Shown: positions 10,293 to 57,817, counted from the stretch's first letter. The stretch is 62,572 bases of DNA from a virus (IMGVR_UViG_2671180890_000001), one strand, 5' to 3'. The notes: generated by a model not told the origin, from the sequence alone. A program made the numbers and translations.

Positions 10293-10301
10293 TTTTCTTC
10301 C

Positions 10302-36310: not shown

Positions 36311-37432
36311 TTACTCAAATAACTTTTTCACTTCATCAACTGTCTGAAGATAACGTTCGCCCTCAATCTCAATACCTATTGCCTGACGTCCTAACTTCAG
36401 CGCAGCTTTAATAGTTGAGCCTGATCCCATAAAGAAATCGGCAACGATATCTCCGGGGCGTGAACTACTCTTTATAATATGTTCCATCATCGCTGCAGGT
36501 TTTTCACATGGGTGCTTGCCAGGATAATATTGCACAGGAGGAAACTCCCATACATCGGTATAAGGTACATCAGCAGTAACATGAAATGGACGGCGTAAAT
36601 TTTCATACTGAGCCTTCAAATCATCATACTGCTTCTTTACTTCCTCATAATGCAATTTCAGATCGCTATAACGCTTTTCATGTTCTGAATAATCAACATT
36701 AAAAGGATATGGACACGGGACACCGAGTGAATCTGCCTTCCTGCGAAATAATTCGCATAGTTTATTAAAATCAATTAATGATGGAAGCCGCCACTGCGAA
36801 TAAGAAAACCAGTGTGAACACATCTGCTTTCCTGTCGCTGAATTAATGTCTGCGGCTGATATATCTAACTGACGGCGAGCCAGCGAAAAAGCATCAATTA
36901 GTGGAGAAAAAATATTTTTTCTTAAATCTGCACATTTTGAAGCATAACCTGACTGACCTTTAGCATAACCTGACGCGCCGTAATGCTCTGCAAATAATAT
37001 TCTTTCAGTAGCAGGAAAATAAGCCCTTAAACTTTCTTTATGACAACCGCGCCACATACCACTGGGTTTAGCCCAAATGATATGGTTCAGAACATTGAAA
37101 CGGTCGCGAGTTAATAATTCAATTTTTGACGCAAGGCGAGAGCCGGTAAACATATACAGGCTGCCATTAGGGGCCAATATCCGCCAAAATTCTGCCAAAA
37201 ATTCGTCAATCCACCCCAAAAAGTCAGCATCGCTATCCCACTGGTTATCCCATGCGTTAGCCTTTACGCCGAAGTATGGTGGGTCTGTTGCAATCAAATT
37301 GACCGAGTTATCAGGGATGGTTTTGATAAATTGCAGAGAATCTGCGCAAACGAGTTGTGCGCCATGAATATTAGTGGTTTTGAACATAGCTATTATTTTT
37401 TTGCCTGGGTAAGCTAACCCGGCGATGCGCAT
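36311..37432 (-). CDS. Orphan DNA methyltransferase (N6-adenine or N4-cytosine, DPPY class)
   Basis: DPPY catalytic motif near the N-terminus and FxGSGST AdoMet motif near the C-terminus; no adjacent restriction enzyme gene. Confidence 0.85.
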   Translation of the reverse strand: MRIAGLAYPGKKIIAMFKTTNIHGAQLVCADSLQFIKTIPDNSVNLIATDPPYFGVKANAWDNQWDSDADFLGWIDEFLAEFWRILAPNGSLYMFTGSRLASKIELLTRDRFNVLNHIIWAKPSGMWRGCHKESLRAYFPATERILFAEHYGASGYAKGQSGYASKCADLRKNIFSPLIDAFSLARRQLDISAADINSATGKQMCSHWFSYSQWRLPSLIDFNKLCELFRRKADSLGVPCPYPFNVDYSEHEKRYSDLKLHYEEVKKQYDDLKAQYENLRRPFHVTADVPYTDVWEFPPVQYYPGKHPCEKPAAMMEHIIKSSSRPGDIVADFFMGSGSTIKAALKLGRQAIGIEIEGERYLQTVDEVKKLFE

Positions 37433-37517
37433 CGCGGGTGGGCTTTAGGTTCAGCCTATAGCTCTGGCATGGGTTGACCGCAGGACAAGCTGCAACTTGT
37501 CCTGCGCCCACTTTTCA

Positions 37518-37550
37518 GGCACAAAAAAACCGCCATAAAGGCGGCTTGTT
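37518..37550 (-). terminator. Strong Rho-independent terminator (candidate tR-prime-like late terminator) upstream of the methyltransferase
   Basis: GCCGCC-TTTAT-GGCGGC followed by T7 on the minus strand; additional hairpins nearby. Confidence 0.45.
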
Positions 37551-37632
37551 GGCTGTTGGGTACAAAAAACCCAACTTAACAAAACAATAACTAAAAACCG
37601 TCATTTTGCCAAGCTTTTTCGTTTTTGTGCTG

Positions 37633-37648
37633 TGCGACCGTGGTCGCA
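37633..37648. promoter_or_regulatory. sopC-like centromere palindrome, site 3
   Basis: TGCGACCGTGGTCGCA within the 20 bp palindrome TGTGCGACCGTGGTCGCACA. Confidence 0.6.
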
Positions 37649-37654
37649 CAGCTT

Positions 37655-37882
37655 TTAGAAAGTTGCCTGCTTATATTCATCGGTCAAAGAATATCGACCA
37701 GATCCGCTACGCTTTGCAACCCCAAAACAGATCATCTGTTCGATGATAAATTCAACGGCAGCTTGACTCAAAAAACAGGCTTCGCTTAACTCTTTCAGGG
37801 AAATGCGTGGGTATCCACGCATAACACATTCCACACTCAGGGCCGCTTCAGTCATATTTCCACGAATTTCATTAATATTCAT
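37655..37882 (-). CDS. Hypothetical small protein
   Basis: 75 aa ORF. Confidence 0.4.
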   Translation of the reverse strand: MNINEIRGNMTEAALSVECVMRGYPRISLKELSEACFLSQAAVEFIIEQMICFGVAKRSGSGRYSLTDEYKQATF

Positions 37883-37895
37883 AACGCCTCTCTAA

Positions 37896-38135
37896 TCAAT
37901 CTTGAAACTGGAAATCAACATCAGCCATAAAGCGGTTCAACTCAGCCAGTTTTGGCCCCATAGTCCCAACTAAGCGACCAGCCAGTCGGTCTGTTAGGTT
38001 GGTACTGTTGAAACCATATTCCTTTTCGAAACGTTCAATCTTCTGCCACAACTCATACAGTTCGTTAGCTATCTCCGCAACGTCGTCGCGCATTTTTTCG
38101 TTACCTTGATAATTCATAATATCCTCCAAATTCAT
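37896..38135 (-). CDS. Hypothetical small protein
   Basis: 79 aa ORF. Confidence 0.4.
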   Translation of the reverse strand: MNLEDIMNYQGNEKMRDDVAEIANELYELWQKIERFEKEYGFNSTNLTDRLAGRLVGTMGPKLAELNRFMADVDFQFQD

Positions 38136-38282
38136 ATAGTTAGTGGGTTATTACCCCTCAATGACACGAACTGTAACTCTGCCAAACGAACACATCCAGT
38201 GTTATTTTTCGCTTTTTAGTGAAATTTTTAATTTGCGTTGTTTTCTTGTTTTAGTGTATTTTATGGATATGGAGGCTATAAT

Positions 38283-38594
38283 ATGTTTAACGTGATAACC
38301 CACCCTGCAGCACTGGATGAACTGCTTGAACTACCAGATGATTTGCGAGGTCGCATGACCAGATTAATTGAGCGACTGGAGAAAGAAGGCAACAAACTGA
38401 AGATGCCCCATAGCCGTGTAATAGGTGGAGGGCTTTTTGAACTACGAGTAGGGGATAAAAACATCGCAAGAACGCTGTACGCCTACGCGACTGGTAACGA
38501 AATTTATCTATTGCATGCATTTGTAAAAAAGACACAGAAAACACCGGTGAAGGCTATCGAAATCGCCAGAACTCGCCTGAAGGAGATGAACTGA
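38283..38594 (+). CDS. Type II toxin, RelE/HigB superfamily (phage Gp49-like)
   Basis: About 103 aa from MFNVITHP; toxin precedes antitoxin as in hig modules. Confidence 0.7.
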   Translation: MFNVITHPAALDELLELPDDLRGRMTRLIERLEKEGNKLKMPHSRVIGGGLFELRVGDKNIARTLYAYATGNEIYLLHAFVKKTQKTPVKAIEIARTRLKEMN

Positions 38595-38881
38595 TGAAAG
38601 CGAAAGGCATCCCGTTTAACGAAGTAAAAGAAAAACTCCTCAACACTCCAGAAGCCGTCAAAGGATATGAAGAGGCCGACAAAGAGCTGGAGATGGTCGA
38701 AATGTTATACGAAATGAGGGAAAGAGCAGGTTTAACGAAATCAGCTCTGGCTGAACGAATGGGGTTGCGACCGTCAGCCATCAGCCGCCTGGAAAGCAAT
38801 CCTTTAGGGGCAAGTATGAAAACTTTGGCTAAATATGCTCATGCCTGCGGCGCAACCATCGATATTCGCGCTGTTTATTAA
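38594..38881 (+). CDS. HTH (XRE-type) antitoxin, HigA-like
   Basis: 95 aa; HTH segment LTKSALAERMGLRPSAISRLE; ATGA overlap with the toxin stop. Confidence 0.7.
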   Translation: MKAKGIPFNEVKEKLLNTPEAVKGYEEADKELEMVEMLYEMRERAGLTKSALAERMGLRPSAISRLESNPLGASMKTLAKYAHACGATIDIRAVY

Positions 38882-38923
38882 TTAGACTCTTTTACTACCC
38901 CGTCCAGAAGGGCGGGGTGTGCA

Positions 38924-39127
38924 TCAATGATGTGAACGCTCAACAGCGATAGTTTGCTGACAATGCTGGGCAATCTCTCGCGACATGTTGATGAGTCGTG
39001 AAACCTCACCAATATGTAGGCTGGCTTCTGGAGAAGCCAGGGTGACGCTAACCAGATCCAGAACGGCGTCAATATCTCTTAAATTTGAATCGAGTTGTTC
39101 AAGAGTTGATACGGCTGCTTCAGACAT
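38924..39127 (-). CDS. Hypothetical protein
   Basis: 67 aa ORF. Confidence 0.35.
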   Translation of the reverse strand: MSEAAVSTLEQLDSNLRDIDAVLDLVSVTLASPEASLHIGEVSRLINMSREIAQHCQQTIAVERSHH

Positions 39128-39209
39128 TAAATCTCATACCATTTAACTAAAAAAGGTTATTTATACTGTATAAAATTACAGGGTAAAACTCAAACTTTAC
39201 GGTCAATTT

Positions 39210-39452
39210 TCAATGAATTAACTGCGTAAACTGCTGTGTGACCCGATACTTATGCTCTCTCCCTATGCCACGATCAACTTTCTCAAGAAGTCCAGTACGG
39301 ACAGCAGAATCAAGCATCCTTTTAACAATTCTGCTATTTAACCCAACATCAAAAGAAAGCATCGAAGCGAAAACAAAACCATCACCACCATCAGAAAAGC
39401 TCTTTTCGCTCCGTTTTCGTATCATTTCAAAAAGCAATGCCTTTTTATCCAT
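39210..39452 (-). CDS. Hypothetical protein, possible winged-helix DNA-binding
   Basis: 80 aa ORF. Confidence 0.4.
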   Translation of the reverse strand: MDKKALLFEMIRKRSEKSFSDGGDGFVFASMLSFDVGLNSRIVKRMLDSAVRTGLLEKVDRGIGREHKYRVTQQFTQLIH

Positions 39453-39470
39453 TTATCCCTCCGTGACCAG

Positions 39471-39797
39471 TCACGCTTTGAGCGCAAGTTTCAGCCTCGT
39501 GGTTGTAAGGTGGCATGACCCTTCGCCATCAAAAATGCATTCTGAAACAGGCATTTTTTGACCACATCGCTGGCAAGTAGTAGATAGCTGCTTCTGCAGC
39601 TCCTTATAGTTTTTCCTGATCAGCAAACCAATGACTTCGTTCTCCGAATATGGAACTCGCCCTGGTCTACGCAATACACAAATTTCCCCCAACATACGTA
39701 ACTCGTCAGGTTCTAGAATCCAGTCCCGTCTTGATGTGCCTTCCTTCTTCAACCGTTCCCTGCGTCTCCTTTGCCGTTCTGCCGGTGTCAGCGCCAT
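39471..39797 (-). CDS. Hypothetical protein with basic N-terminus and Cys-rich C-terminus
   Basis: 108 aa ORF. Confidence 0.4.
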   Translation of the reverse strand: MALTPAERQRRRRERLKKEGTSRRDWILEPDELRMLGEICVLRRPGRVPYSENEVIGLLIRKNYKELQKQLSTTCQRCGQKMPVSECIFDGEGSCHLTTTRLKLALKA

Positions 39798-39812
39798 AAA
39801 TCCTCCTGAAAA

Positions 39813-40343
39813 TTACTTAACCCAATTAACTACACCGCCAGCGGCCACAACCGCCCTTTCACAGTCACGCTCATATCTCAAAGGTTGAAATACACCATCA
39901 ATAAAATATTTATCTCCACCAAACGCTGCAGGAAGTGAAACAGAAAACTGAATATGACCATCCAGAGTTACCGGAGAGTTGCCAGCCAGTCTACGCAACA
40001 CAGCCTTAACGGCCTCAATACGGTCATCATCAACTTTTTCTACAATATTGGAATTTAAATACTTCGAAGCCTTGCTATGCCAATCGCTGGTTTTAGGGTC
40101 TTGTCCATCCATCAAACGCCAAGCTTCAGCGATTAACTCATAGCCAGTGACAGTGGCTTCCTGCGCATCACCAATAAGTCGTGTAATCTCTCTTTCAAGC
40201 CGACCGCCTAGCTCTGTTTTAGTGCAATGTTCTGACCAATCGCCAGCCTCAAGCAGCGCGAGAATGCTTAAAATATCGTCCAATAGAACGGTAGTATTAT
40301 CGACTTCCTTCTGAAACTCACCGGCTACTGATTTATGCATCAT
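39813..40343 (-). CDS. Hypothetical protein
   Basis: 176 aa ORF. Confidence 0.45.
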   Translation of the reverse strand: MMHKSVAGEFQKEVDNTTVLLDDILSILALLEAGDWSEHCTKTELGGRLEREITRLIGDAQEATVTGYELIAEAWRLMDGQDPKTSDWHSKASKYLNSNIVEKVDDDRIEAVKAVLRRLAGNSPVTLDGHIQFSVSLPAAFGGDKYFIDGVFQPLRYERDCERAVVAAGGVVNWVK

Positions 40344-40642
40344 TCGTCATCCTCATCTGAGTCATCCTCATCACAGGATGAGAGTAGTGGGTTAGTCATT
40401 CGCCCTACTTGAGTGGCGTAGCCACGCCGACAGAGATTGCGCAGCACACTGTATATTTCGAACATCTCGGTTCGTTCATCACCAACATCAAGCTCAGATG
40501 CTATAGCGTGGCATTCAGTCGCGAGAGCCGATATTTTCTGAAATAACTCTGCTTTATTCACTCTTCGACTCCTGCGGCGGTTCTGGTAGTGGCATCCAGT
40601 GAGTTGCTTGCTCAATACCATTACCCGGCTTAATCGTTGCAT
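40340..40642 (-). CDS. Hypothetical protein with poly-acidic C-terminal tail
   Basis: 100 aa ORF ending CDEDDSDEDDE; start overlaps the upstream gene so one start is wrong. Confidence 0.4.
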   Translation of the reverse strand: MQRLSRVMVLSKQLTGCHYQNRRRSRRVNKAELFQKISALATECHAIASELDVGDERTEMFEIYSVLRNLCRRGYATQVGRMTNPLLSSCDEDDSDEDDE

Positions 40643-41303
40643 CTCCGCGCCGAAAGGTGCTTCCGGTATAGCGTGCGGAGCATATTAGCGGTTCAACCAG
40701 AGAGCTATCGAAATTCACCGAAATAAGCACGTTCTGGCCCTTTTCAGGCATTCGCTCACTACAGCTTATCCAACCATCCGGAGTTACCGGATAGTTGCCA
40801 GCCTCATACGCGACCCTTATCCAGTGCATAAGCATTTCAGTACTTACACATCCACAATCAACATCAATTTTGTCATGCTGCTGTTCCAGCCATTGCTCAA
40901 AAGTTAACTTGTAAGTTTGGCTTACAGGTTTGGCTTCCAGTTCTGCTATGTGATTTTTGGCTGATTCCAACTCAATCGACAATTTTTCCAACTGCTCTTT
41001 ATGATTTTTATATTCCTGATATGCGTGCCAGGACTGACCTTTGCGCACACTATCAGTGATATCAGTAATCTGTTCTGGTGTTAGCGTGGTCAGTGGCTGT
41101 GATGGGAAAATAAGCACTTTCCCGGAATCCCAATCAAAACCAGCGTGAATTGACTGAACCTCAACTGAAGGTGTTGAACCAATGCTGCCAGGCGAATGAA
41201 CAACGATTGTTACATCCATATCGCGACGATGGCTGTGGTTGTTGGACAAAATACGATTCAACAAAATACGATTCACCAACTCAGAAAATTTAGAAAATTT
41301 CAT
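40554..41303 (-). CDS. DUF551-type phage protein
   Basis: C-terminal PDGWISCSERMPE ... HWMPLPEPP pattern. Confidence 0.5.
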   Translation of the reverse strand: MKFSKFSELVNRILLNRILSNNHSHRRDMDVTIVVHSPGSIGSTPSVEVQSIHAGFDWDSGKVLIFPSQPLTTLTPEQITDITDSVRKGQSWHAYQEYKNHKEQLEKLSIELESAKNHIAELEAKPVSQTYKLTFEQWLEQQHDKIDVDCGCVSTEMLMHWIRVAYEAGNYPVTPDGWISCSERMPEKGQNVLISVNFDSSLVEPLICSARYTGSTFRRGDATIKPGNGIEQATHWMPLPEPPQESKSE

Positions 41304-41668
41304 GCTGATTCACCTTTCTCTGCTCTCTCCTGTCGGAACATCACTATCATCAGGTCGCCTTTTGTCGCTATCTTGGCTGTTGTGCCTGGCTCAATGCGGC
41401 TAAGTTCAAATGCGTCATAGAACGCCTCCAACGCTTTCTGGCGTTTTTCCTGTTTGCGGCGCTTTCCCCACTGCTTTAGAAAAACAGAGGCCGCCCACTT
41501 CCCCGCACTGAACATGATGTAAAACCAACCGAGAAGTGCCAGACCGGTATTTAGGGCCGTATCGATCGTTATCGTGGTGTCGATATTCACTACGCCACCT
41601 CCTGAAAATTTCCCTGATAAAACGCCAACACACGCTGCATAACTTCGCTCTTCCGACAATCGTGACAA
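41300..41668 (-). CDS. Hypothetical membrane-associated protein
   Basis: 122 aa ORF with one hydrophobic segment. Confidence 0.4.
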   Translation of the reverse strand: MSRLSEERSYAACVGVLSGKFSGGGVVNIDTTITIDTALNTGLALLGWFYIMFSAGKWAASVFLKQWGKRRKQEKRQKALEAFYDAFELSRIEPGTTAKIATKGDLMIVMFRQERAEKGESA

Positions 41669-42009
41669 ATCATGTTCAAGCGCCTGTCGTAACGACGTAT
41701 TTCTCCGTCAGGTAATGACCAGATAAGGTCTGGATCAACCACTACCGATTTCTTCGGCTTTACTCTTGATAGTTTTTTACGGGCGTTTTGCCAGTCCTTG
41801 CGTGCTTGTGCAGACAGAAATATCCCGGAGCCAGAGATATACAAATCACCACTGGCAGCAAGCTCTCTTGATAAACGACTAACAGCACACCGGCTAATAC
41901 CAGTTTCATCCGCAAGTTGCCTAACCGTTCCTCGTCCATTCAGGCGCACGAGTTCCACAATTTGTTTATTCAGTTCTTCCCTCTGTTCTGGTGTAAAAGC
42001 CTTTGCCAT
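41590..42009 (-). CDS. HTH DNA-binding protein
   Basis: 139 aa; HTH-like RQLADETGISRCAVSRL. Confidence 0.5.
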   Translation of the reverse strand: MAKAFTPEQREELNKQIVELVRLNGRGTVRQLADETGISRCAVSRLSRELAASGDLYISGSGIFLSAQARKDWQNARKKLSRVKPKKSVVVDPDLIWSLPDGEIRRYDRRLNMICHDCRKSEVMQRVLAFYQGNFQEVA

Positions 42010-42608
42010 TACGATTCTCCTTGCCCTTTTACAAGACGGGAGAAAATTGCGGATACATATTTAGCCTGATGAATAGCATCAGCCAGGGCATTGTGTCGTT
42101 CGCCATCAAATGGCATATCTTTTTTAGGATTAAAACCAATAAACTGACCAAGATTAACGATTGTTCGAACATCCTGATCATTAAAATATTCCCACGGACA
42201 GGCTAAGCCAACGCGCTCATAAGCACCGCGTAAAATTACATTATCGAACGTTGCTCCATTTCCCCATACTTTCAATTTTTTTAAATTACATGCATGGCAA
42301 GTAATAAAGTGTGATAATTCAAAAAGTGCATCCTTAATATCAAGGACATCATTAGTACAAATAGCGGCTCTGGCTTCCTTGCTCTGTTTCAACCACCATA
42401 AAATGGTATCACCATCGGCGATACCACCATTCAACATCGAGCTTCTGAGATTCACTGGCACATAAAAAGTAGGACCTAATTCCTCACTTTCTGGAGAAAA
42501 AAACACTGCCCCGATAGAAACAATTGGAGCACATGTGTTAGTACCCATTGTTTCAAGGTCAATCATTACATCAGACCGTTTCCTGTCGTAAATAATCTGA
42601 TTAGTCAC
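42009..42608 (-). CDS. 3'-5' exonuclease, DEDD family
   Basis: 199 aa; DLETMG exo I motif and C-terminal H...D motif. Confidence 0.7.
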   Translation of the reverse strand: MTNQIIYDRKRSDVMIDLETMGTNTCAPIVSIGAVFFSPESEELGPTFYVPVNLRSSMLNGGIADGDTILWWLKQSKEARAAICTNDVLDIKDALFELSHFITCHACNLKKLKVWGNGATFDNVILRGAYERVGLACPWEYFNDQDVRTIVNLGQFIGFNPKKDMPFDGERHNALADAIHQAKYVSAIFSRLVKGQGES

Positions 42609-42631
42609 GAATAATTCTCCTCAACGTTTAT

Positions 42632-42835
42632 CTATACCCAAATTTTCTGTTGATATGTTCTGGATGGTTTTGGCGTTCTTTCTGATTCAGGTAAATGAAC
42701 ATAAACGCAATATCCATCACCTAAAAAATCAGAACGAACAACCAGAACTTTCTTACCACGCCGCCGATAAGTATCTGAAAGACGCTCTGCTTCATCATGC
42801 GTCATCGGCCCCTGCTTAAATGGCGTTATTTTCAT
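42632..42835 (-). CDS. Hypothetical small protein
   Basis: Start taken at MKITPFKQ; the ORF-track extension reads through a sopC-like palindrome. Confidence 0.4.
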   Translation of the reverse strand: MKITPFKQGPMTHDEAERLSDTYRRRGKKVLVVRSDFLGDGYCVYVHLPESERTPKPSRTYQQKIWV

Positions 42836-43136
42836 TTTCTTGTGCGACCACGGTCGCACCCTCTCTGATTTCCAAGTAACGCTTAATCCAAAGATTTTCT
42901 ATATGCTTATTACCTGGCTGATTTGATAAATACCAATCGGCAATTACAGACTGCTTATTACTATCTGGTCGTGTCCTGTAACCACAAGTTGGACACCAGA
43001 TAACATATTCATTTCTTACCCCCGAATACCTTAATTCTGGCTTCGACGGTTTCCTGAACATAACTTGTTTACAAAGACAGAATGGCACTTCCTGCCCGAT
43101 GGCGTTTGATGATTTCACTGCGCTTCTCCGCCGCAT
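42816..43136 (-). CDS. Zinc-ribbon protein, possibly Lar-family restriction alleviation
   Basis: CxC ... CPTCG cysteine pairs; start uncertain. Confidence 0.35.
   Translation of the reverse strand: MRRRSAVKSSNAIGQEVPFCLCKQVMFRKPSKPELRYSGVRNEYVIWCPTCGYRTRPDSNKQSVIADWYLSNQPGNKHIENLWIKRYLEIREGATVVAQENENNAI
42843..42858. promoter_or_regulatory. sopC-like centromere palindrome, site 4
   Basis: TGCGACCACGGTCGCA. Confidence 0.6.
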
Positions 43137-43779
43137 TTAATAATGCAGTTCGATTTAAGCTCAGACATCGCGACTTAATTAAAAGCCAGCGTTCTTTATA
43201 ATCTTGTCTCCAGCTATCAATAGATATATTCAGTAGAAAACTCAGATGCCTGTCCTGTTCTCTCTCATCAACTGCCTCAGCACACGTAAGTTCTGATTTA
43301 ACCTGTTGTGCCGCGTAATAAATCAATTTCCGCATGGCTTTTTTCGTGGAGGCCTTCATTTTTTTAAAGCCGCCCCCCGAATGAGCAACCAGAAAATCAA
43401 GCCATAACCACTGACAAACAATCACATCATTGTTGTAATCAGGCTTGCATCCGTAGCAATAATAAAGCCAGGCTGATTCCTCGTTATTCAACTGACCAAT
43501 AGCCCTGCGCCAGCTGGCGCTCTGAAAATCAATATCAGTGAGCAACATTGATGATTGTTTAAATGTTTTCCCCTGGTGGAATCTAACCGGCTCAGCAGGA
43601 ACGGACACTTCGTATGAGTTATCATCCCCCACACTGATTGACCGGACTGGTTTATTGTTAAACCGTCCTGATCTACCGAGACGCATCTGCTCAAGCTGGA
43701 CCTCCAGAATGCCACGCTGGCGATAATGAACATCAGCCAATGCCGTAGAGACGCAGCTGCGTATATACTCAAGCTCCAC
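43069..43779 (-). CDS. Putative late antitermination protein Q-like
   Basis: 236 aa; position immediately downstream of cro on the same strand; family assignment not verified. Confidence 0.4.
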   Translation of the reverse strand: MELEYIRSCVSTALADVHYRQRGILEVQLEQMRLGRSGRFNNKPVRSISVGDDNSYEVSVPAEPVRFHQGKTFKQSSMLLTDIDFQSASWRRAIGQLNNEESAWLYYCYGCKPDYNNDVIVCQWLWLDFLVAHSGGGFKKMKASTKKAMRKLIYYAAQQVKSELTCAEAVDEREQDRHLSFLLNISIDSWRQDYKERWLLIKSRCLSLNRTALLNAAEKRSEIIKRHRAGSAILSL

Positions 43780-44017
43780 GCTTACGACTCTCCTTAATCG
43801 ACTGCTTTACCCGCCGAGTTGTAAAGTCACTCTTCAGCTTATAAGCAGTACGAACTTCAATATCGCTTTGCCGCAATGAAGGAATCTCTCCAGCGGTTAA
43901 CCATTGGTAAACAGCTCCGGGTGTTACACCTACCCCTGCCGCTGCTTTTTCTACACTGCCAAAATGGCGAATAAGTTCTTCTGGTTTCATGTTGTTATTA
44001 TAAACAATAAACAACAA
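43769..44017 (-). CDS. cro: Cro-like repressor
   Basis: 82 aa with HTH (VGVTPGAVYQWL), divergent from the CI-like repressor. Confidence 0.6.
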   Translation of the reverse strand: MLFIVYNNNMKPEELIRHFGSVEKAAAGVGVTPGAVYQWLTAGEIPSLRQSDIEVRTAYKLKSDFTTRRVKQSIKESRKRGA

Positions 44018-44081
44018 TTAAAGCCAGCTATAATAAATAAATTTTATAGCCAGCTATAAGAAGATCATTTATGATTACAGT
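44018..44081. promoter_or_regulatory. Divergent promoter/operator region between cro and cB
   Basis: Repeated AGCCAGCTATAA / TTATAGCCAGCTATAA motifs. Confidence 0.5.
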
Positions 44082-44678
44082 ATGAAAACACGAGGCGAAC
44101 GACTGAAAGCACGCCGTTTAGAGATGAAGCTGACGTTGCGAGAAGTTGCTGAGGCTGTCGATATCTCTATAGCAGGCGTCCAAAACTTAGAACGTGGCGA
44201 CGTAATGCCGTCACTGGAGATAGGTATTGCCCTGGCTAAGTGCTTACGCAAGCCAGTGCATTGGGTGCTATATGGGACAGAATATGACCCTGATCGCATT
44301 CCTGTTATTGGCACAACTGAAAGTGGGCCGGATGAAGAGTGGAAGCCGGGACAGGTTCCAAATACTGAGCGATTCCTGCCATTCATCAGCCAGCGCAATA
44401 CTGTGTATGCGTTAACTATCAGCAATCTTACGCAGGGAAACTATCAGCCAGGCGATTTTCTCCTGGTCGATTCTGCGCTGGAACTGGTCCCCGGCGAGGA
44501 TGTTCTGGTTCGTGATACTGCAGGAAATATCACTATCCAGCGCCTGGCCCGTTTTGATGATGAAAATTACTATCTGGATGGAACAAACTCACAACGCGCC
44601 ATCTTCAGGAAAAGCGATCTTGAATTTGTTCACCAAATAGTCGGAACGATCAAATCATTCATGGTTGAGGGTAGATGA
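44082..44678 (+). CDS. cB: Prophage repressor, CI/CB-like (HTH plus C-terminal S24-like domain)
   Basis: 198 aa; N-terminal HTH_XRE LTLREVAEAVDISIAGVQNLERG. Confidence 0.8.
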   Translation: MKTRGERLKARRLEMKLTLREVAEAVDISIAGVQNLERGDVMPSLEIGIALAKCLRKPVHWVLYGTEYDPDRIPVIGTTESGPDEEWKPGQVPNTERFLPFISQRNTVYALTISNLTQGNYQPGDFLLVDSALELVPGEDVLVRDTAGNITIQRLARFDDENYYLDGTNSQRAIFRKSDLEFVHQIVGTIKSFMVEGR

Positions 44679-48919: not shown

Positions 48920-49103
48920 TCAGTGGATATTATCTTTGTGTCTCTTGCTTTGTGTGTTCCAGCAATGGTTTTGGTTCATAGATCGAAAGTCTCACAAGGA
49001 AAACATGAAGGCCAGGAAGGCGATGTTTCGTGGTGAACAACTCGCGCAGACTTATCGTATGTGGAAACGTTTCTATCGTGATTTTTCGGTGAACGGGGAG
49101 TAA
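48912..49103 (+). CDS. Hypothetical small membrane protein
   Basis: Internal Met MGNQWILSLCLLLC; overlaps repA stop. Confidence 0.4.
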   Translation: MGNQWILSLCLLLCVFQQWFWFIDRKSHKENMKARKAMFRGEQLAQTYRMWKRFYRDFSVNGE

Positions 49104-49107
49104 AAAT

Positions 49108-49434
49108 ATGTCTACTACTGCATTTTTGGACAAACTTGATTACCGTCAGCTGCAGTTTTGCCGGGATGAATGCGATCGACGCATTAAGGCTATCCAGGAG
49201 GAAGAAAAAAAGGTTGCCTGGGCTGTAACAGATCGTGGCCTTATCTTTGGCTGGTTCCGTACGGAGGATTATCTGAAAGCAGTGGAATTATTGGCGCGTG
49301 AGGCTGCTGAGCGTTGGGAACGAGCCGACAAGGAAAACCCGGAGACGAAGTATGAACTGAATCTCTACATCGAGGGCAACCGTCTACCATTGTCAGAGTA
49401 TAACGCTTTGTTTGCTGATGGTGAGTGGGGTTAA
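49108..49434 (+). CDS. Hypothetical protein
   Basis: 108 aa ORF. Confidence 0.5.
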   Translation: MSTTAFLDKLDYRQLQFCRDECDRRIKAIQEEEKKVAWAVTDRGLIFGWFRTEDYLKAVELLAREAAERWERADKENPETKYELNLYIEGNRLPLSEYNALFADGEWG

Positions 49435-49832
49435 AAATGGCTGTTCAATCATACAAATACGAATCCCCTTTGGATAAGGGATACATTCGTATCAAGTTAA
49501 GTCGTTCTCAACATAAGGCTATTTTTAAGGTAAGGAAAATTCGCATATTGGATGCGTATGCGTATTACTACAACGGTGAAAATGTTGTTGTTGAACACTT
49601 TCTTGCACGATGGTTTGTAGCTCTGATTTTTGTCCCTCTCCTGTTAATTGGTACTTTTGTGGATGGTTTTCCTAGTACATGGCGGGAGATAAAGAAAGGC
49701 CTATTCCCGCGTAAGTACGGCAGATTTTCGCAAGATAGCTGGCGAGTTATACCTGGTAAACATTCTGTGGATGAGCAGCCGATTGTTGATTACTGGTTGA
49801 AGCGTATGGCTGATGCTAAAAAAGTTGATTGA
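49425..49832 (+). CDS. Hypothetical membrane protein
   Basis: 135 aa ORF with a central hydrophobic segment. Confidence 0.5.
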   Translation: MGLKMAVQSYKYESPLDKGYIRIKLSRSQHKAIFKVRKIRILDAYAYYYNGENVVVEHFLARWFVALIFVPLLLIGTFVDGFPSTWREIKKGLFPRKYGRFSQDSWRVIPGKHSVDEQPIVDYWLKRMADAKKVD

Positions 49833-49921
49833 ATAGTGATGACTGTTCAAGTTAAACCGTTCTCGGCATATTTTATTTAATGGAATAACATATTATTAAT
49901 CAAATAGGTTAAGTTAATATT

Positions 49922-50734
49922 ATGCGTAACAAAAAAACAACAGCTTTATTACTCTCTATCTTGTTATTATCTGGATGCACTTATCAATATGATAATAAGG
50001 CATCAACGGACGTTGAGTATAAATTCGAAAAAGAAAAAAGAGTACCTATCAACTCTGTTGGTGATTTTAGCAGCAAAATACTCACAGGTAAGGAATTTAA
50101 TAGAATTATTGCATCAAAGATAGATGATGGTTCATGGCGTGGATATGTCGTTCACTCATTAACATACGCGCCATACAACAACGTTTTAACATCTCAAGGT
50201 TTGTCTATCCCTAGAAGTATCACATACTCAGGAACATATCTTAACCGTGATTTTGTTGAGAATAGCGGTAGTGATAGCGTGATAACATCTCGAGATATGT
50301 CTGGATGGTATGGTTTTCATGTCGATTCCTCTGAAATAACAAAGCATGGAAGCTATGTTGGTGCTAATGCTTTTGGAATATCTGCTGATGTAGAAGTGTT
50401 AAATACTTTAGGTGCCGAAATTATCTTTGGTAGTACACAAATAAATGAAGGGAACCCTGAAACAATATGGGCAGATATTGATATAAAAGGACAAATACCA
50501 AAAGATGTTAATGTAAAAGACCTTAGAATTGAATATTTAGCAAAGATAAATGGGTTAAGCAGTAATCATATTGATATAACATCACCTACTATTTTTAACC
50601 CGTCAGATATGAGCCATAAAACTCAGGTTTTTATGGGTGAGTTATTAGCCGCGCGCCTAATAAATATTAAAACGGGAGAAATTTATCCAGTACAGCTAGA
50701 GTGGGTGTTCCGTTCGCGTGAGGCTTTCTTATAA
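49922..50734 (+). CDS. Moron lipoprotein, function unknown
   Basis: 270 aa; signal peptide with lipobox LLSGC; strongly AT-rich gene. Confidence 0.6.
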   Translation: MRNKKTTALLLSILLLSGCTYQYDNKASTDVEYKFEKEKRVPINSVGDFSSKILTGKEFNRIIASKIDDGSWRGYVVHSLTYAPYNNVLTSQGLSIPRSITYSGTYLNRDFVENSGSDSVITSRDMSGWYGFHVDSSEITKHGSYVGANAFGISADVEVLNTLGAEIIFGSTQINEGNPETIWADIDIKGQIPKDVNVKDLRIEYLAKINGLSSNHIDITSPTIFNPSDMSHKTQVFMGELLAARLINIKTGEIYPVQLEWVFRSREAFL

Positions 50735-50864
50735 CGGAACAATAACATTGTTCATGTTCTGATCGTTTGTTCAAGCAAACTATAAAAACACCTGTCCCCG
50801 TGACTGGTCACGGGGTAAAATGTCTTTGCAAATTATTGACGTGTGCGTCGTTTTGGAGGTAAAG

Positions 50865-50950
50865 TCACCTCGCTGCGGTAAATCCCGCAGTCGGGACTTC
50901 GCAATCCTGGCAAAACGAAGCGCACAACACGCGCCAGCGTGTTTTTTTGT
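50865..50950 (+). ncRNA. Candidate c4-like cis-antisense regulatory RNA upstream of icd-ant
   Basis: TTGACG and TAAAGT promoter-like hexamers, CTGCGG/CCGCAG stem-loop, ACACGC/GCGTGT terminator plus T7; two 8 nt blocks complementary to a site about 100 nt downstream. Confidence 0.4.
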
Positions 50951-51111
50951 GTGTATAGACCTGCGCATATCCGAATTATGGTGGCTCAGGTGGGGCTGAC
51001 TTCGGTCGGGCCGGTTTCTTCGTTTACCGGTATTGCGAACCCCGCCTGGGCTACCACCAATAAAGAGATTCGCAACTCTGGTGGTAGCACGACCAATAAA
51101 ACGGAGTGCAT

Positions 51112-51279
51112 ACCATGTTCAAATTCAAATTTGCGGCAGTCGTTCGCACAGACAAAAAGTCCCACATTCATCATCTTTCCACTATCGCGTCATCTGAACG
51201 GGAAGCTCGTCGCCAGTTCGCCAGCCGGTTTGTCCTGGTATTGTCTGCCCGTATTCCGGTGCGCGAGGTGGCTGCATGA
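51112..51279 (+). CDS. icd: Icd-like cell division inhibitor (55 aa)
   Basis: MFKFKFAAVVRTDKK ... SSEREARRQFAS pattern; not in the ORF track because under 60 aa; coordinates approximate. Confidence 0.45.
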   Translation, partial: TMFKFKFAAVVRTDKKSHIHHLSTIASSEREARRQFASRFVLVLSARIPVREVAA

Positions 51280-51509
51280 ATCAGGTAAAAATGAACACTG
51301 TTGGCCTGCTGGAATCGTTGGATGAACGTCTGGCTCAGGTCTATGCGCTCGTATCATCAGCCCATCGGACAGTCTCCAGTTGTGAGGCGTCGATTTACCT
51401 CTCAGAGGCTGGAAAACTTCTGCAGATTGCGTGTGAGTTAACGCATGAAGCACAGGGATATTCTGCGTCTCTCTCGTCGCACTTGCTGCGCGATAAGGAG
51501 GCTGAATGA
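51276..51509 (+). CDS. Hypothetical protein in the antirepressor operon
   Basis: 77 aa ORF, translationally coupled to the flanking genes. Confidence 0.5.
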   Translation: MNQVKMNTVGLLESLDERLAQVYALVSSAHRTVSSCEASIYLSEAGKLLQIACELTHEAQGYSASLSSHLLRDKEAE

Positions 51510-52288
51510 GCGCGTTAGCAGTCTTTTCCTTTCAGGAAGAGCATCAGGTTCGTGTAGTGATGATTAACGGTGAGCCGTGGTTTGTGGCTAAGGATGTATG
51601 TGATGCTTTAAGACTCGTTAATTCCCGGAAGGCGCTAATGTCTCTGGATGAGGATGAAAAGGGTGTAACTTTAAGTTACACCCCTGGCGGAGAGCAAAAG
51701 CTAAATATTATTTCAGAGTCAGGTCTATACACCCTGATCCTCCGCTGCCGTGACGCGGTGAAGCAAGGCACAACAGCTTGGCGGTTTCGCAAATGGGTAA
51801 CGAACGAAGTCTTGCCCTCTATTCGCAAAAATGGAGAGTACGTTTACATCGAGCCTGAGCCAATGCGAGCAGCGGAGCCGTTGAACTGGAGGCAGAAAGA
51901 GTATCTGCGAGGGCTGATTAACGATATAGCACAAAGTTTTCAGTACCGAAATGCCTGGATTAGCGGTGTATGGTTAGCTTTGCGTCGGGCGTGTCGTAAT
52001 CCATCCCCGAACCCCATAACGGTTGATGATTTGCCAGCAATTACGGCAGAACTGCGCCGGATTTTGACGGCTGCTGAGTCGGCATTGGGGAACATGCGCA
52101 CGTATGAACGAGAGTTGTTGCGTGATGTTGTTCGTGGGGGTAGGCGGAGTATGTCGTGTGGTGATTTACCCATCACCGATATTAACTCTGATCTGGAAAA
52201 GGCGTTACCCGCGCATTTTGAACTGGCAGTTCAAAAACTTGAGCAGTTATCCGCGCAGCTAAAGCCAGCAGAAATCACCAATAAATAG
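51506..52288 (+). CDS. Antirepressor with Bro-N domain
   Basis: 260 aa; N-terminal FSFQEEHQVRVVMINGEPWFVAKDVCDAL. Confidence 0.75.
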   Translation: MSALAVFSFQEEHQVRVVMINGEPWFVAKDVCDALRLVNSRKALMSLDEDEKGVTLSYTPGGEQKLNIISESGLYTLILRCRDAVKQGTTAWRFRKWVTNEVLPSIRKNGEYVYIEPEPMRAAEPLNWRQKEYLRGLINDIAQSFQYRNAWISGVWLALRRACRNPSPNPITVDDLPAITAELRRILTAAESALGNMRTYERELLRDVVRGGRRSMSCGDLPITDINSDLEKALPAHFELAVQKLEQLSAQLKPAEITNK

Positions 52289-52459
52289 GGTTGACCAGCC
52301 CGAATTTATGCCCTTCTTAGAGAAGGGAAGCCTCGCAGTCGGGGCGGTGATGTCTGTGGTTGCAGCCGCGTTTCCTCCGTTACTTCTGCCCTTTGCAGGG
52401 GGCAGGCGAGGTAGGTCACACAACAAGGCACCGTTAATTCGGTGCCTTTACTGTATGCT

Positions 52460-54355
52460 TTAACCGAAATATGTCAGCCATGCTAACTGCATTGCTGACA
52501 TGGGGCTGTTTGCACTGCCGGACCACGCATAATTCTGGCCATTATAATGAAACTCAACAACGTATGAGCCATCACCAATATTTCTCACCGGCTTAAATAC
52601 CGGCTTAGATACAGGCGAAGAAGGTGCAGGCGGTTGCTGTTCTTCTACGCTATCTTCCTCTTCCTCTTCCTCTATCTCAATTTCGTCGTCATCCAGATCG
52701 TCATCCTCTGATAATTCATCCGCCAGTTCAGGTATTGCTTCCAGTTCTTCTTCGTCAGGCATAACGATTTCTGGAGTATCTATTTTCAGTTGCCATTGTC
52801 CGTTTTCGCCAACAAATTGCCCCAGAGCATCAGCAGCAAATTCCAGGTATCGACTAATCATTGTTGGGCTAAATTTGAACGCTCTTAGAGTGCTGTTCGT
52901 GATTTTTATAGAGGGGTCCTGCTCTACCAGCTGCTTAACTGTGTTATGCAGACGAACCCCGGCATCTCCTCTGGCGAATCCAGGCATTTCGTCATCAAGC
53001 TGCTGCAATGCTTCCAGCCTGGTATTTTCGTTTCCAGTATTTGGCCTCCATGTCTTTGAGAAGTTGGCCAGCTTGAATTGCTTATAGTGTAATTGAGTGT
53101 TTTCATCGTCATGGCCTAAAATTTCCATAAAGAAAACATCTTCATCTACGTTTTTCCAACGAGGATCTACGCGGAAAAACATTTCATACGCAATACGGGC
53201 ATAAATAGCACGACTATCTTTATAAACACGGCGGTCATCTTTGAAAAATGATTTAACCCACGGGTTAAAAGCCTTTGCTAATATGGCATTAATACGTCCG
53301 TTTTCAGAGCGTGTGTCGTTATCTCCATAACCTTTAACGACATCATCAAAATCAGATGCTGCTGGGCATGAGCGAAGTACATTTATTAAATAAACAAATG
53401 TTTTTGCTTCGCATAATGTATATATTTTTCTGGTTATATCATCAGAAGTTCTTTTTTTAGCTTGGCCTAAAAAATCAACGGTATACTTACCAGAAACAGT
53501 AAATGTACCTTGATACATAATCTCAATCATTCGTCTTCCTGACAATGCAGCAAGTGCAAATGCCAAAGGAGCCATACCTGAACGAGTGTTTAGATTATTT
53601 AATGTAGCAGGGCTATTTATAATATCGTAAATAGCTTGCATATATTTAGGGTAATCAATGACCACCACGTTACGTTTCTTATTGTGCAGAACGTCCGCCC
53701 ATCGTTGCTGGATAGATGCACGTTCGGCAGGGCTTAGTTGAAGATGATAGAGAATCTCATGGTTAACTTTTAGCTGATTCAACTCCTCAAGTAAGGCAGA
53801 TCCTTGCTGTAGTAATTTATATAAATAATCGCGCTTATCTTTCCAGTTATCGCTAGTTAAATCAGAAATGGCGAATTGCCACTCTTTATATTTATTTGAT
53901 AATTTCAATAACTTATTATGACTTTTGTTATCGCCAATTCTGATATTAGATAAATCTTCTGATAGAGGGAGAATTAATTTTAATTTTGCCTGTAAAGCTG
54001 ACATTCTCTGGCGAATATCGGCAGCAGGTAGAGAAAGCCATGACAATAGCTCCTCATTATATAAAGGATACTTTTCAGATAGGCGATGTATATTTTTTTC
54101 AAAGCTATGATGAAGTTTATCATCAAACCGTTTTCTGGCCCTGCTCATATAGGCATTGAATGTGTTGGCTGTAATTCTTTTTTCTAATCCTTTCCCCCTA
54201 AACTTTCGCTTGTCATTAAATAATGCATTTTTAAATTTTAATGCAACAGCCTTTATTTTTTTTGTTTTCTCCCCTTGAGGACGGTCAGAGTTATCTATTG
54301 ACTCAACATCGCTAACAAGTGAGTTTATTAATTCACCGATTTTTACTTTGCTCAT
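52460..54355 (-). CDS. telN: Protelomerase TelN
   Basis: 631 aa; adjacent to the telomere palindrome; N15 TelN-like length and position. Confidence 0.9.
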   Translation of the reverse strand: MSKVKIGELINSLVSDVESIDNSDRPQGEKTKKIKAVALKFKNALFNDKRKFRGKGLEKRITANTFNAYMSRARKRFDDKLHHSFEKNIHRLSEKYPLYNEELLSWLSLPAADIRQRMSALQAKLKLILPLSEDLSNIRIGDNKSHNKLLKLSNKYKEWQFAISDLTSDNWKDKRDYLYKLLQQGSALLEELNQLKVNHEILYHLQLSPAERASIQQRWADVLHNKKRNVVVIDYPKYMQAIYDIINSPATLNNLNTRSGMAPLAFALAALSGRRMIEIMYQGTFTVSGKYTVDFLGQAKKRTSDDITRKIYTLCEAKTFVYLINVLRSCPAASDFDDVVKGYGDNDTRSENGRINAILAKAFNPWVKSFFKDDRRVYKDSRAIYARIAYEMFFRVDPRWKNVDEDVFFMEILGHDDENTQLHYKQFKLANFSKTWRPNTGNENTRLEALQQLDDEMPGFARGDAGVRLHNTVKQLVEQDPSIKITNSTLRAFKFSPTMISRYLEFAADALGQFVGENGQWQLKIDTPEIVMPDEEELEAIPELADELSEDDDLDDDEIEIEEEEEEDSVEEQQPPAPSSPVSKPVFKPVRNIGDGSYVVEFHYNGQNYAWSGSANSPMSAMQLAWLTYFG

Positions 54356-54525
54356 CTTTCCTCTCCTGATTATCCGCTCGGATTATCGTAACACAATTTG
54401 AGAATAAGATAACTAATAACGCGTTAACTTAGGCACAAACTAACAGAACACAACAACGGATAATAAATAAAAACACAATATCGGAACGTTAAAATTTGTT
54501 CCTTGACTTTGTTCTGAAAATCAGC

Positions 54526-54567
54526 ACATAATTCCCCATTATACGCACGTATAATGGGGAATTATGT
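54526..54567. repeat. Right hairpin telomere (telR) read-through: same 20 bp arms around a CA centre at 54546-54547
   Basis: ACATAATTCCCCATTATACG-CA-CGTATAATGGGGAATTATGT. Confidence 0.85.
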
Positions 54568-54737
54568 GCTGATTTTCAGAACAAAGTCAAGGAACAAATT
54601 TTAACGTTCCGATATTGTGTTTTTATTTATTATCCGTTGTTGTGTTCTGTTAGTTTGTGCCTAAGTTAACGCGTTATTAGTTATCTTATTCTCAAATTGT
54701 GTTACGATAATCCGAGCGGATAATCAGGAGAGGAAAG

Positions 54738-56633: not shown

Positions 56634-56804
56634 AGCATACAGTAAAGGCACCGAATTAACGGTGCCTTGTTGTGTGACCTACCTCGCCTGCCCCCTGCAA
56701 AGGGCAGAAGTAACGGAGGAAACGCGGCTGCAACCACAGACATCACCGCCCCGACTGCGAGGCTTCCCTTCTCTAAGAAGGGCATAAATTCGGGCTGGTC
56801 AACC

Positions 56805-57587
56805 CTATTTATTGGTGATTTCTGCTGGCTTTAGCTGCGCGGATAACTGCTCAAGTTTTTGAACTGCCAGTTCAAAATGCGCGGGTAACGCCTTTTCCAG
56901 ATCAGAGTTAATATCGGTGATGGGTAAATCACCACACGACATACTCCGCCTACCCCCACGAACAACATCACGCAACAACTCTCGTTCATACGTGCGCATG
57001 TTCCCCAATGCCGACTCAGCAGCCGTCAAAATCCGGCGCAGTTCTGCCGTAATTGCTGGCAAATCATCAACCGTTATGGGGTTCGGGGATGGATTACGAC
57101 ACGCCCGACGCAAAGCTAACCATACACCGCTAATCCAGGCATTTCGGTACTGAAAACTTTGTGCTATATCGTTAATCAGCCCTCGCAGATACTCTTTCTG
57201 CCTCCAGTTCAACGGCTCCGCTGCTCGCATTGGCTCAGGCTCGATGTAAACGTACTCTCCATTTTTGCGAATAGAGGGCAAGACTTCGTTCGTTACCCAT
57301 TTGCGAAACCGCCAAGCTGTTGTGCCTTGCTTCACCGCGTCACGGCAGCGGAGGATCAGGGTGTATAGACCTGACTCTGAAATAATATTTAGCTTTTGCT
57401 CTCCGCCAGGGGTGTAACTTAAAGTTACACCCTTTTCATCCTCATCCAGAGACATTAGCGCCTTCCGGGAATTAACGAGTCTTAAAGCATCACATACATC
57501 CTTAGCCACAAACCACGGCTCACCGTTAATCATCACTACACGAACCTGATGCTCTTCCTGAAAGGAAAAGACTGCTAACGCGCTCAT
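56805..57587 (-). CDS. Bro-N antirepressor (fold-back copy)
   Basis: Identical 260 aa translation. Confidence 0.7.
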   Translation of the reverse strand: MSALAVFSFQEEHQVRVVMINGEPWFVAKDVCDALRLVNSRKALMSLDEDEKGVTLSYTPGGEQKLNIISESGLYTLILRCRDAVKQGTTAWRFRKWVTNEVLPSIRKNGEYVYIEPEPMRAAEPLNWRQKEYLRGLINDIAQSFQYRNAWISGVWLALRRACRNPSPNPITVDDLPAITAELRRILTAAESALGNMRTYERELLRDVVRGGRRSMSCGDLPITDINSDLEKALPAHFELAVQKLEQLSAQLKPAEITNK

Positions 57588-57817
57588 TCAGCCTCCTTAT
57601 CGCGCAGCAAGTGCGACGAGAGAGACGCAGAATATCCCTGTGCTTCATGCGTTAACTCACACGCAATCTGCAGAAGTTTTCCAGCCTCTGAGAGGTAAAT
57701 CGACGCCTCACAACTGGAGACTGTCCGATGGGCTGATGATACGAGCGCATAGACCTGAGCCAGACGTTCATCCAACGATTCCAGCAGGCCAACAGTGTTC
57801 ATTTTTACCTGATTCAT
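57584..57817 (-). CDS. Hypothetical 77 aa protein (fold-back copy of 51276..51509)
   Basis: Identical translation. Confidence 0.45.
   Translation of the reverse strand: MNQVKMNTVGLLESLDERLAQVYALVSSAHRTVSSCEASIYLSEAGKLLQIACELTHEAQGYSASLSSHLLRDKEAE

Follow-up and report, generated by a model that had tools for sequence, protein, structure and literature searches.

A mosaic accessory gene block in an Escherichia coli N15-like phage-plasmid, with a variable slot apparently rebuilt from one Ea-type gene into three

The Ea22 protein of lambda and the Stx phages is pro-lysogenic, forms a coiled-coil tetramer and ends in a variable C-terminal domain, and in phage 933W the ea22 gene has been split by an insertion (PMC10834534, PMC8614690). 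Oad2 (HK446 gp27), a relative of P22 EaE that in some cases is fused to Ead/Ea22 proteins, binds and inhibits the P2 OLD nuclease (bioRxiv 10.64898/2026.07.10.737580), and the DUF551 protein YfdS of prophage CPS-53 helps, with YfdQ and YfdR, to inhibit DnaA-dependent initiation and to confer tolerance of oxidative stress (PMC4776307). Here we analysed a block of eight small minus-strand genes, designated O8 to O1, at positions 38924-42009 of the viral sequence IMGVR_UViG_2671180890_000001 (62,572 nt, the whole of which we call the window), three of which, O6, O5 and O4, appear to have arisen from a single Ea-type gene by recombination at a short linker repeat.

The element that carries the block is an E. 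coli N15-like linear phage-plasmid (telomere phage). The E. coli plasmid pCAVP367-48 (NZ_CP145143.1, 47.6 kb, linear) is 99.9% identical to the region over its entire length, the phages PhiR46_1 and YDC107_1 are about 97.5% identical to it with the exception of one swapped cassette, and the same eight genes are annotated in pCAVP367-48 and PhiR46_1. The gene order is that of phage N15, running through RepA (1331 aa), the CB repressor, cro, Q, an exonuclease, small genes and an opposed RelE/helix-turn-helix (HTH) pair, and continuing beyond that pair with two small genes, a DNA methylase and the lysis genes. Given this layout, which is syntenic with N15 genes 41-51, the block corresponds to the slot occupied by genes 42-47 in N15. 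It is flanked on one side by an Rv2179c-like 3'-5' exonuclease (PF16473, E 5.5e-67) and on the other by a RelE/ParE toxin with its HTH antitoxin, which bears out an earlier, sequence-only reading that had placed it between a toxin-antitoxin module and the exonuclease. In N15, on the other hand, the exonuclease is of a different type, none of O4-O8 is present and the unrelated gp42-gp45 fill the rest of the slot; O4-O8 are therefore dispensable for the telomere-phage lifestyle.

All eight open reading frames (ORFs) named in that reading exist, and since each matches a PHROG family (E 6e-32 to 6e-72) they are genes and not chance ORFs. The size range it gave, 67-249 aa, stands, but two starts were corrected: O5 begins at a GTG at 40561 and O7 at a GTG at 41590, each with a Shine-Dalgarno (SD)-like site upstream and in agreement with the RefSeq annotation, and the acidic-tail ORF given as 100 aa is 73 aa long and the one given as 122 aa is 96 aa long. 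Its description of the products as small acidic proteins applies to O1, O4, O5 and O6 only, the other four (O2, O3, O7 and O8) being basic with pI 9.6-10, and where it held that nothing could be assigned from sequence alone, all eight ORFs could be placed in families and sorted into evolutionary layers. The genes are tightly packed, with overlaps of 1, 1, 4, 8 and 4 nt from the exonuclease through O4, the first of these being that of the O8 start with the exonuclease stop; gaps of 15, 18 and 82 nt precede O3, O2 and O1.

We consider it probable, if only by a little, that the block is a non-essential accessory part of the cro-side operon, assembled in three evolutionary layers, whose Ea-type proteins and O5 would act as binders that tune the choice between lysis and lysogeny and counter exclusion or defence. 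The layer beside the exonuclease would consist of O8, of the Ren family, and O7, which are constant in the lineage and are otherwise a pair of lambdoid nin regions. The second would be the hypervariable slot O6/O5/O4, with an 816-bp segment recombined into one gene at a 31-nt repeat, and the third would be a telomere-phage backbone of O3, O2 and O1.

The evidence for the second layer came from a comparison of five relatives, in which the O6/O5/O4 slot is variable and its flanks are constant. In the window the slot begins with O6 (40554-41303, minus strand, 249 aa, acidic), which comprises an N-terminal module (N-module) A, a long helix, the linker AGNYPVTPDGW and a C-terminal DUF551 domain, and it ends with O4 (39813-40343, minus strand, 176 aa, acidic), which comprises N-module B, the linker AGNSPVTLDGH and a C-terminal domain 'A' (residues 120-176). 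PhiR46_1 and a Shigella sonnei plasmid have instead a single slot gene of 219 or 224 aa that corresponds to residues 1-186 of O6 joined to residues 120-176 of O4. In a DNA comparison this single gene aligns with the window on either side, and what the two alignments have in common is exactly one 31-mer, a sequence that encodes the linker AGNSPVTPDG and is found twice in the window, at 40773-40803 within O6, the putative recombination joint, and at 39957-39987 within O4 (both on the minus strand). Because the two copies bracket the extra DNA, the window has an insertion of 816 bp, the repeat-to-repeat distance, which contains a DUF551 domain, O5 and a second N-terminal module. The alignments thus suggest that O6, O5 and O4 arose by recombination of this 816-bp segment into a single ancestral gene at the 31-nt linker repeat, an arrangement that resembles the gene-splitting insertion of 933W.

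The same comparison points to the kind of protein that O6 and O4 may be. The DUF551-like protein of the sequence-only reading is O6, in which PF04448 matches residues 177-244 at E 3.5e-24 (85.9 bits, with a cut-off of 22, over positions 1-68 of the 68-position profile). The AlphaFold2 model of O6 is poor (mean predicted local distance difference test score, pLDDT, 57), and only a long helix at about residues 76-124 (low confidence) and the five-stranded DUF551 domain (pLDDT 64-88) can therefore be read from it; a Foldseek search of the PDB with this model gave a best E of 0.43. O4 matches phrog_20174, phrog_19524 and phrog_343, and the exact protein is present on more than 800 contigs, many of them from S. 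sonnei. Their modules recur in other combinations: N-module B is fused to DUF551 in many other prophages, N-module A is joined to an EaE-like domain in pEA26_5 of E. albertii, and the linker (AGNSPV(T/I)P.GW) followed by DUF551 is found in P22 EaA and in 933W L0065. Moreover, phrog_368 is common to O6 and lambda Ea22, and homologues of O6 at 73-79% identity (P0171, P0172) carry both the Pfam domain Ead_Ea22 (PF13935) and DUF551.

In architecture, then, both proteins have an N-module and an interchangeable C-terminal domain, with a central helix in O6, and in location they lie downstream of Q and the exonuclease, with relatives in exo-xis or nin regions. The lambda-type ea genes themselves differ in lying between exo and xis, where O6 and O4 lie downstream of Q in a telomere phage. 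These features are consistent with O6 and O4 being modular proteins of the Ead/Ea22/EaA/EaE type, in which a linker joins an N-terminal scaffold to a swappable C-terminal domain. YfdS shares DUF551 with O6 and lacks the N-module of O6, and its partners YfdQ and YfdR are absent from the window; in CPS-53-like prophages it is encoded in an early operon beside a 3'-5' exonuclease, much as O6 is near the exonuclease here. DUF551 is sometimes fused to an Rv2179c-like 3'-5' exonuclease domain (P0289), and in chromosomal prophages DUF551 or O5-like genes often stand directly beside an Rv2179c-like exonuclease (for example L005, 6433-7244, and L011, 6001-6857), which may point to the modules and the exonuclease being functionally connected.

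The insertion also brought O5 (40340-40561, minus strand, GTG start), a protein of 73 aa predicted to form a two-helix hairpin with a disordered poly-acidic tail. O5 matches phrog_4220 at E 8.8e-42, and its family, with 58 representatives among 1.84 billion proteins and 56 clusters at 90% identity, is confined to prophages of Escherichia and Klebsiella. Within the core the motif GDERTEMFEIY is nearly invariant. The tail CDEDDSDEDDE, to which the sequence-only reading had drawn attention, is indeed present, and its composition is conserved in the family, with 10-20 Asp or Glu residues and often a Trp or Phe.

The way in which O5 is joined to the gene that precedes it suggests how it moves. In about 85 of 88 related loci the O5-like gene starts with GTG, and in 68 it overlaps the upstream ORF by 8 nt. 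The 71 upstream ORFs that were found represent 46 distinct proteins with at least four types of C-terminal domain, and these proteins end, with few exceptions, in (Q/R)E(V/S)K(G/S)E at the stop codon. This common ending is the SD sequence and start codon of O5, in that GGTGAATAA reads Gly-Glu-stop in the upstream frame and Met-Asn-Lys in the other. Since the shared ending and the O5 initiation signals are the same sequence, O5 carries its own initiation region and is translationally chained to whichever gene precedes it; judged from these signals, its translation is probably coupled to that gene, with the SD sequence and GTG inside the last 8 codons. A specific pairing of O5 with DUF551 was rejected, given the 46 distinct upstream proteins and given that in 933W the corresponding junction precedes the unrelated L0064. 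There (locus L099, 2133-2498, minus strand) an unrelated ORF of about 95 aa, and no O5-type gene, follows a 'PLPEPPQE' junction at the end of the DUF551 gene, and the junction is therefore a general exchange point. L0064 looks ASCH/PUA-like by eye and has no Pfam match.

O5 is found not only as a free protein. The O5 core is joined to an O4-type N-module in P0300 and P0324, an O5-like hairpin forms the C-terminal domain of EaA-like or N15-gp45-like proteins, and in the divergent relatives P0324 and P0319 the tail of O5 is replaced by a fusion to another module. As a separate observation, the loss of 1 nt close to the end of the DUF551 gene yields in-frame Ead_Ea22+DUF551+O5 fusions of 319-358 aa (P0297, P0298) in many assemblies, among them the IMG/VR loci L030-L039, L048 and L050-L052, around position 2950-3010; P0297 carries PF13935. 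Judging from these arrangements, the best view of O5 is that of a detachable module in the shuffling family of Ea-type proteins. An identification of O5 with 'Orf73' of the Stx exo-xis region was rejected, Orf73 being a TraR/DksA-like C4 zinc protein whose motif does not occur in O5.

Given that the tail had been described as DNA-mimic-like, and that O5 has a net charge of -10, a pI of 4.3 and a conserved poly-Asp/Glu C-terminus, it was reasonable to consider that O5 might be an anti-restriction protein of the Ocr/ArdA kind, whose overall acidic composition it shares. Those mimics, however, carry their charge on a folded surface, whereas nine acidic residues of O5 lie in its last 11 positions and the remainder, the helices at 3-56, is near-neutral. 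AlphaFold2 placed helices at residues 3-23 and 28-56, with block-mean pLDDT of 90-97 over residues 1-40, and predicted the last eight residues, 66-73, to be disordered (pLDDT below 50). A Foldseek search of the PDB with the O5 model returned only generic helical hairpins (best E 3.7) and no DNA mimic, PDB sequence searches returned nothing relevant, and the exchange of the tail for a fused module in P0324 and P0319 also counts against a mimic. O5 as a folded DNA mimic was thus rejected on its disordered charge, near-neutral core and lack of sequence or fold similarity to such proteins; with the structured form already largely refuted, we regard any mimic of this kind as very improbable. The tail would instead be a flexible polyanionic appendage.

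Turning to the first layer, O8 (41590-42009, minus strand, 139 aa, basic) is a DUF977 winged-helix protein (PF06163, E 1.1e-29, score 103.6 against a cut-off of 22.1) that belongs with lambda Ren, its matches to winged helix-turn-helix (wHTH) families being weak and sub-threshold. It matches phrog_142, 'Ren-like exclusion protein', over residues 1-138 at E 2.7e-42, and lambda Ren matches the same profile at 1.6e-41, full-length in both cases. The two proteins are alike in having an N-terminal region of winged-helix type and in sharing the C-terminal motif CRxSxxMxRVLAxY (NMICHDCRKSEVMQRVLAFY in O8 versus NLVFKECRQSAAMKRVLAVY in Ren, 50% identity, pairwise E 9e-6). They differ in length (139 aa versus 96 aa, O8 having an inserted basic segment), in their relation to the Pfam DUF977 model (Ren falls below it and O8 above) and in position, Ren following the replication gene P at the start of the nin region and O8 following the exonuclease. 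Elsewhere, namely in a Qin-like prophage and one further lambdoid contig, DUF977 genes do stand directly after the replication genes, in the position of Ren. Escape from Rex exclusion, attributed to work of Toothman and Herskowitz in 1980, is said to be the defining phenotype of Ren. By analogy with lambda Ren, it is plausible that O8 would act against Rex-type exclusion. An interaction of the Rex proteins with Ren has been reported, and Ren has also been described as 'likely involved in DNA replication' (bioRxiv 10.1101/2021.04.19.439022).

O7 (41300-41590, minus strand, 96 aa, GTG start, basic) is a DUF4752 protein (PF15944, E 5.8e-41, 138.9 bits against a cut-off of 27; also phrog_667) with a hydrophobic N-terminal segment. 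Its most hydrophobic 19-mer, residues 12-30, has a Kyte-Doolittle value of 1.27, and because this is under the usual transmembrane threshold we left a transmembrane assignment open. The DUF4752 family also occurs in lambdoid nin regions, shortly after replication genes of the lambda P or DnaB type. The exonuclease, O8 and O7 form a constant trio in five N15-like relatives examined in detail (from E. coli, Shigella and E. albertii), among which O8 is 98.6-100% identical, and N15 has none of the three. O8 and O7 are constant partners of the exonuclease and derive from lambdoid nin-type regions.

The third layer has its counterparts in N15 itself. O3 (39471-39797, minus strand, 108 aa, basic, five Cys) is 80% identical to N15 gp46, matches phrog_536, 'transcriptional regulator', at E 5.6e-32, has homologues in telomere phages, epsilon15-like phages and Vibrio phages, and is conserved at 96-99% in sibling plasmids. 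O2 (39210-39452, minus strand, 80 aa, basic) is 67% identical to N15 gp47, matches phrog_13995, may contain a winged helix and is degraded in some siblings. O1 (38924-39127, minus strand, 67 aa, acidic) matches phrog_6301 at E 1.8e-35 and, weakly, phrog_10889, 'anti-repressor', at 7e-8; in a tblastn search it was restricted to 13 phage records of the N15/phiKO2 type, phiKO2 Gp47 among them. An unannotated N15 ORF (NC_001901, 39619-39807) between gene 47 and the antitoxin gene 48 is 56% identical to O1, and the three genes stand in the same order and in the same place beside the RelE/HTH pair as gp46, gp47 and this ORF in N15 and Gp47 in phiKO2. O3 and O2 are, on the strength of their family matches, probably small DNA-binding regulators, and O1-O3 together are conserved backbone genes, not a fast-evolving arsenal, for which an anti-defence role is unlikely.

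When all ORFs were compared by BLASTP with the early and nin proteins of lambda, P22 and N15, the only matches were O8 to Ren, O6 to EaA and orf87 (in the DUF551 part), O3 to gp46 and O2 to gp47; Ral, Gam, Abc1/2, gp17, Kil, Ea8.5, Orf60a/61/63 and Ea10 were not matched by any. An NCBIfam scan of the eight ORFs and PDB sequence searches with six ORFs and an O5 profile gave nothing significant. PADLOC models run against all eight ORFs likewise gave no significant match (best E 0.002-0.014, over short stretches), and with no known defence or anti-defence model matched the function of the block remains inferred.

The connection to counter-defence came by way of Oad2. Oad2 shows similarity to the slot protein of pEA26_5, which carries the N-module of O6 (E 2e-4), and to the product of a gene that lies directly upstream of an O5-like one (E 3e-7); over residues 1-43 it shares 95% identity with the N-terminus of a second protein encoded upstream of an O5-like gene. 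It belongs to the same shuffling family, whereas the C-terminal domains in the window are DUF551 and the short 'A'. Because this relative inhibits OLD, an anti-defence role for the Ea-type cassette is plausible, and we extend the same judgement to O8. In addition, an ORF of 106 aa between Q and the exonuclease (42816-43136, minus strand) is Lar-like, matching phrog_6795, 'Lar-like restriction alleviation protein', at E 1.5e-45 and the Pfam family Lar_restr_allev at E 3.6e-4, under the cut-off; it overlaps the end of Q by 68 nt and is not in the gene tables shown for pCAVP367-48 and PhiR46_1. With O8 being Ren-like and this ORF Lar-like, the neighbourhood holds relatives of counter-exclusion and restriction-alleviation genes.

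Were the block to work as we propose, the string of genes would be transcribed after derepression from the cro promoter through Q, and its products would be non-enzymatic binders. The Ea-type proteins and O5 would bind proteins of the host or of rival elements stoichiometrically, and by doing so would tune the lysis/lysogeny decision and counter exclusion or defence, and O8 would counter Rex-type exclusion on the model of lambda Ren. A bolder and more doubtful extension, which we offer tentatively, is that the Ead, Ea22, EaA and EaE proteins together with O5 form one combinatorial counter-defence platform, in which an oligomerising N-terminal scaffold would present interchangeable 'warhead' domains (DUF551, A, EaE/Oad2-type and O5), each neutralising a different immune protein of a host or prophage, with exchange at the 31-nt linker and at the O5 initiation region and with O5 either fused or free.

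Several of our own results weigh against the proposed reading. At E below 0.1 neither O6 nor O4 has a match to PF13935 (Ead_Ea22), and neither shows pairwise similarity to lambda Ea22. By BLAST the likeness of O8 to Ren is confined to a 20-residue motif, and in this element O8 is preceded by the exonuclease and does not stand beside replication genes. No ORF of the window carries a domain of EaE/Oad2 type or matches Oad2 or EaE directly, and a DNA-binding role for O2 draws on sub-threshold matches of wHTH type (RP-C, Dimerisation and Sso10a, E about 0.02-0.03).

These points make it necessary to consider how else the block might be explained. Were it a dedicated anti-defence island, most of the eight proteins would inhibit immune systems (restriction-modification, Rex, OLD-type nucleases) and the slot would record an arms race, as the Ren-family protein, the Lar-like ORF just upstream at 42816-43136, the hypervariability of the slot and the EaE/Oad2-like domain that a sibling plasmid carries on the same N-module, Oad2 being an inhibitor of OLD, might lead one to expect; homologues of Lar_restr_allev, DinI and the theta subunit of DNA polymerase III (pol III) also neighbour O5-like genes in other prophages. 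Yet the PADLOC models found nothing, O1-O3 are a conserved backbone of which O3 and O2 are DNA-binding-like, O8 and O7 are nearly invariant in the lineage, contrary to what an arms race predicts, and the phenotype for which Ea22 has been characterised is developmental, so that we consider such an island unlikely. The suggestion of the sequence-only reading that the region is of an anti-restriction or anti-defence type survives to the extent that it is a variable accessory region with a Ren-like O8, a Lar-like ORF and kin of Oad2, and fails in that no anti-defence model was matched and O1-O3 are backbone. The opposite view is that the eight genes are purely modulators of development or host physiology like the exo-xis genes that lambda and the Stx phages carry, acting on lysis-lysogeny, induction or host replication and the cell cycle with no part in counter-defence. 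Ea22 is after all pro-lysogenic and exo-xis genes affect both induction and the survival of the host (PMC10834534, PMC8614690), YfdS acts with YfdQ and YfdR in DnaA inhibition and oxidative-stress tolerance (PMC4776307), and O3 and O2 look like regulators. To this view, which we likewise assign a low probability, it can be objected that an EaE-type relative directly inhibits a defence nuclease and that so extreme a shuffling of C-terminal domains is more typical of conflict interfaces. Ren, moreover, is reportedly defined by escape from Rex exclusion.

A role as accessory factors of the exonuclease or of replication, with the wHTH protein O8, the Zn-ribbon-like O3 and the Tudor/SH3-like DUF551 directing the exonuclease or RepA to their substrates, would account for the constancy of the exonuclease-O8-O7 trio. 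It would fit as well with the fusion of DUF551 to an Rv2179c-like domain in P0289, with the presence of DUF551 next to the same exonuclease in CPS-53-like prophages, with the same exonuclease following O5-like genes in Klebsiella prophages, and with the description of Ren as 'likely involved in DNA replication'. N15, however, manages with a different exonuclease and without O4-O8, the slot genes are freely exchanged or reduced to a single gene in siblings, and no homology to replication or recombination accessory proteins of lambda, P22 and N15 was found, homology of a kind that the sequence-only reading had named as contrary to its own proposal; we judge this role quite improbable. The reading of the block as a three-layered accessory part of the cro-side operon is the one we retain.

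With regard to transcription, a consensus scan of the coding strand within the block gave no convincing promoter or terminator, and an Rfam scan of 37400-44200 gave only sub-threshold chance matches. Beyond the block, at 37612-37527 on the minus strand, a promoter-like site (TTGGCA, a 17-nt spacer, TATTGT) precedes a strong hairpin of terminator type and a T-run. Because this site is placed like the annotated -35/-10 signals and stem-loop that precede the methylase and lysis genes of N15, it is by analogy a candidate Q-dependent late promoter with a terminator. The block lies downstream of cro-Q, which the N15 literature describes as a two-cistron operon, and upstream of this site. Since no internal promoter or terminator was seen and the late-type site lies beyond the block, its designation as early is a reasonable inference.

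Two further features of the window deserve mention. In the 42-nt spacer at 38882-38923, which separates the convergent stop codons of O1 and the antitoxin gene, there is an inverted repeat rich in GC (ACCCCG...CGGGGT) that has a T-run on neither side and could be a bidirectional attenuator or an RNA-stability element. The ends of the window, 1-12500 and 49000-62572, are inverted duplications with palindrome centres at 6164/6165 and 54546/54547, their arms being gapless over at least 1378 and at least 3943 nt at about 95% identity, with mirrored ORFs that include two 631-aa genes of TelN size (52460-54355, minus strand, and 54738-56633, plus strand). The unique part, 6165-54546, amounts to 48.4 kb, roughly the size of the linear plasmid, and the inverted ends have the appearance of an assembly that read through both hairpin telomeres, or of a head-to-head replication intermediate.

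Pieces of the block are present in 3328 of 5426 complete E. coli genomes (61%), mostly in chromosomal prophages, and the complete eight-gene arrangement was found in four genomes and six plasmid records only. The block is an ordinary mosaic accessory segment whose gene families are widespread in E. coli prophages, and what it contributes is annotation, not a new kind of system. The families concerned (DUF977, DUF4752, DUF551 and Ea22-like) are in most E. coli genomes, and none of them has a mechanism. Against this background the window offers a clean natural example of how such a locus may be rebuilt, one gene becoming three by recombination at a 31-nt linker, and the modest new points are this conversion, the embedded initiation region of O5 and the recognition of O5 as a free module of the Ea family. 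If the C-terminal domains of Ea-type proteins are target-specific inhibitors, as Oad2 suggests, their architecture would provide a handy means of mining anti-defence specificities.

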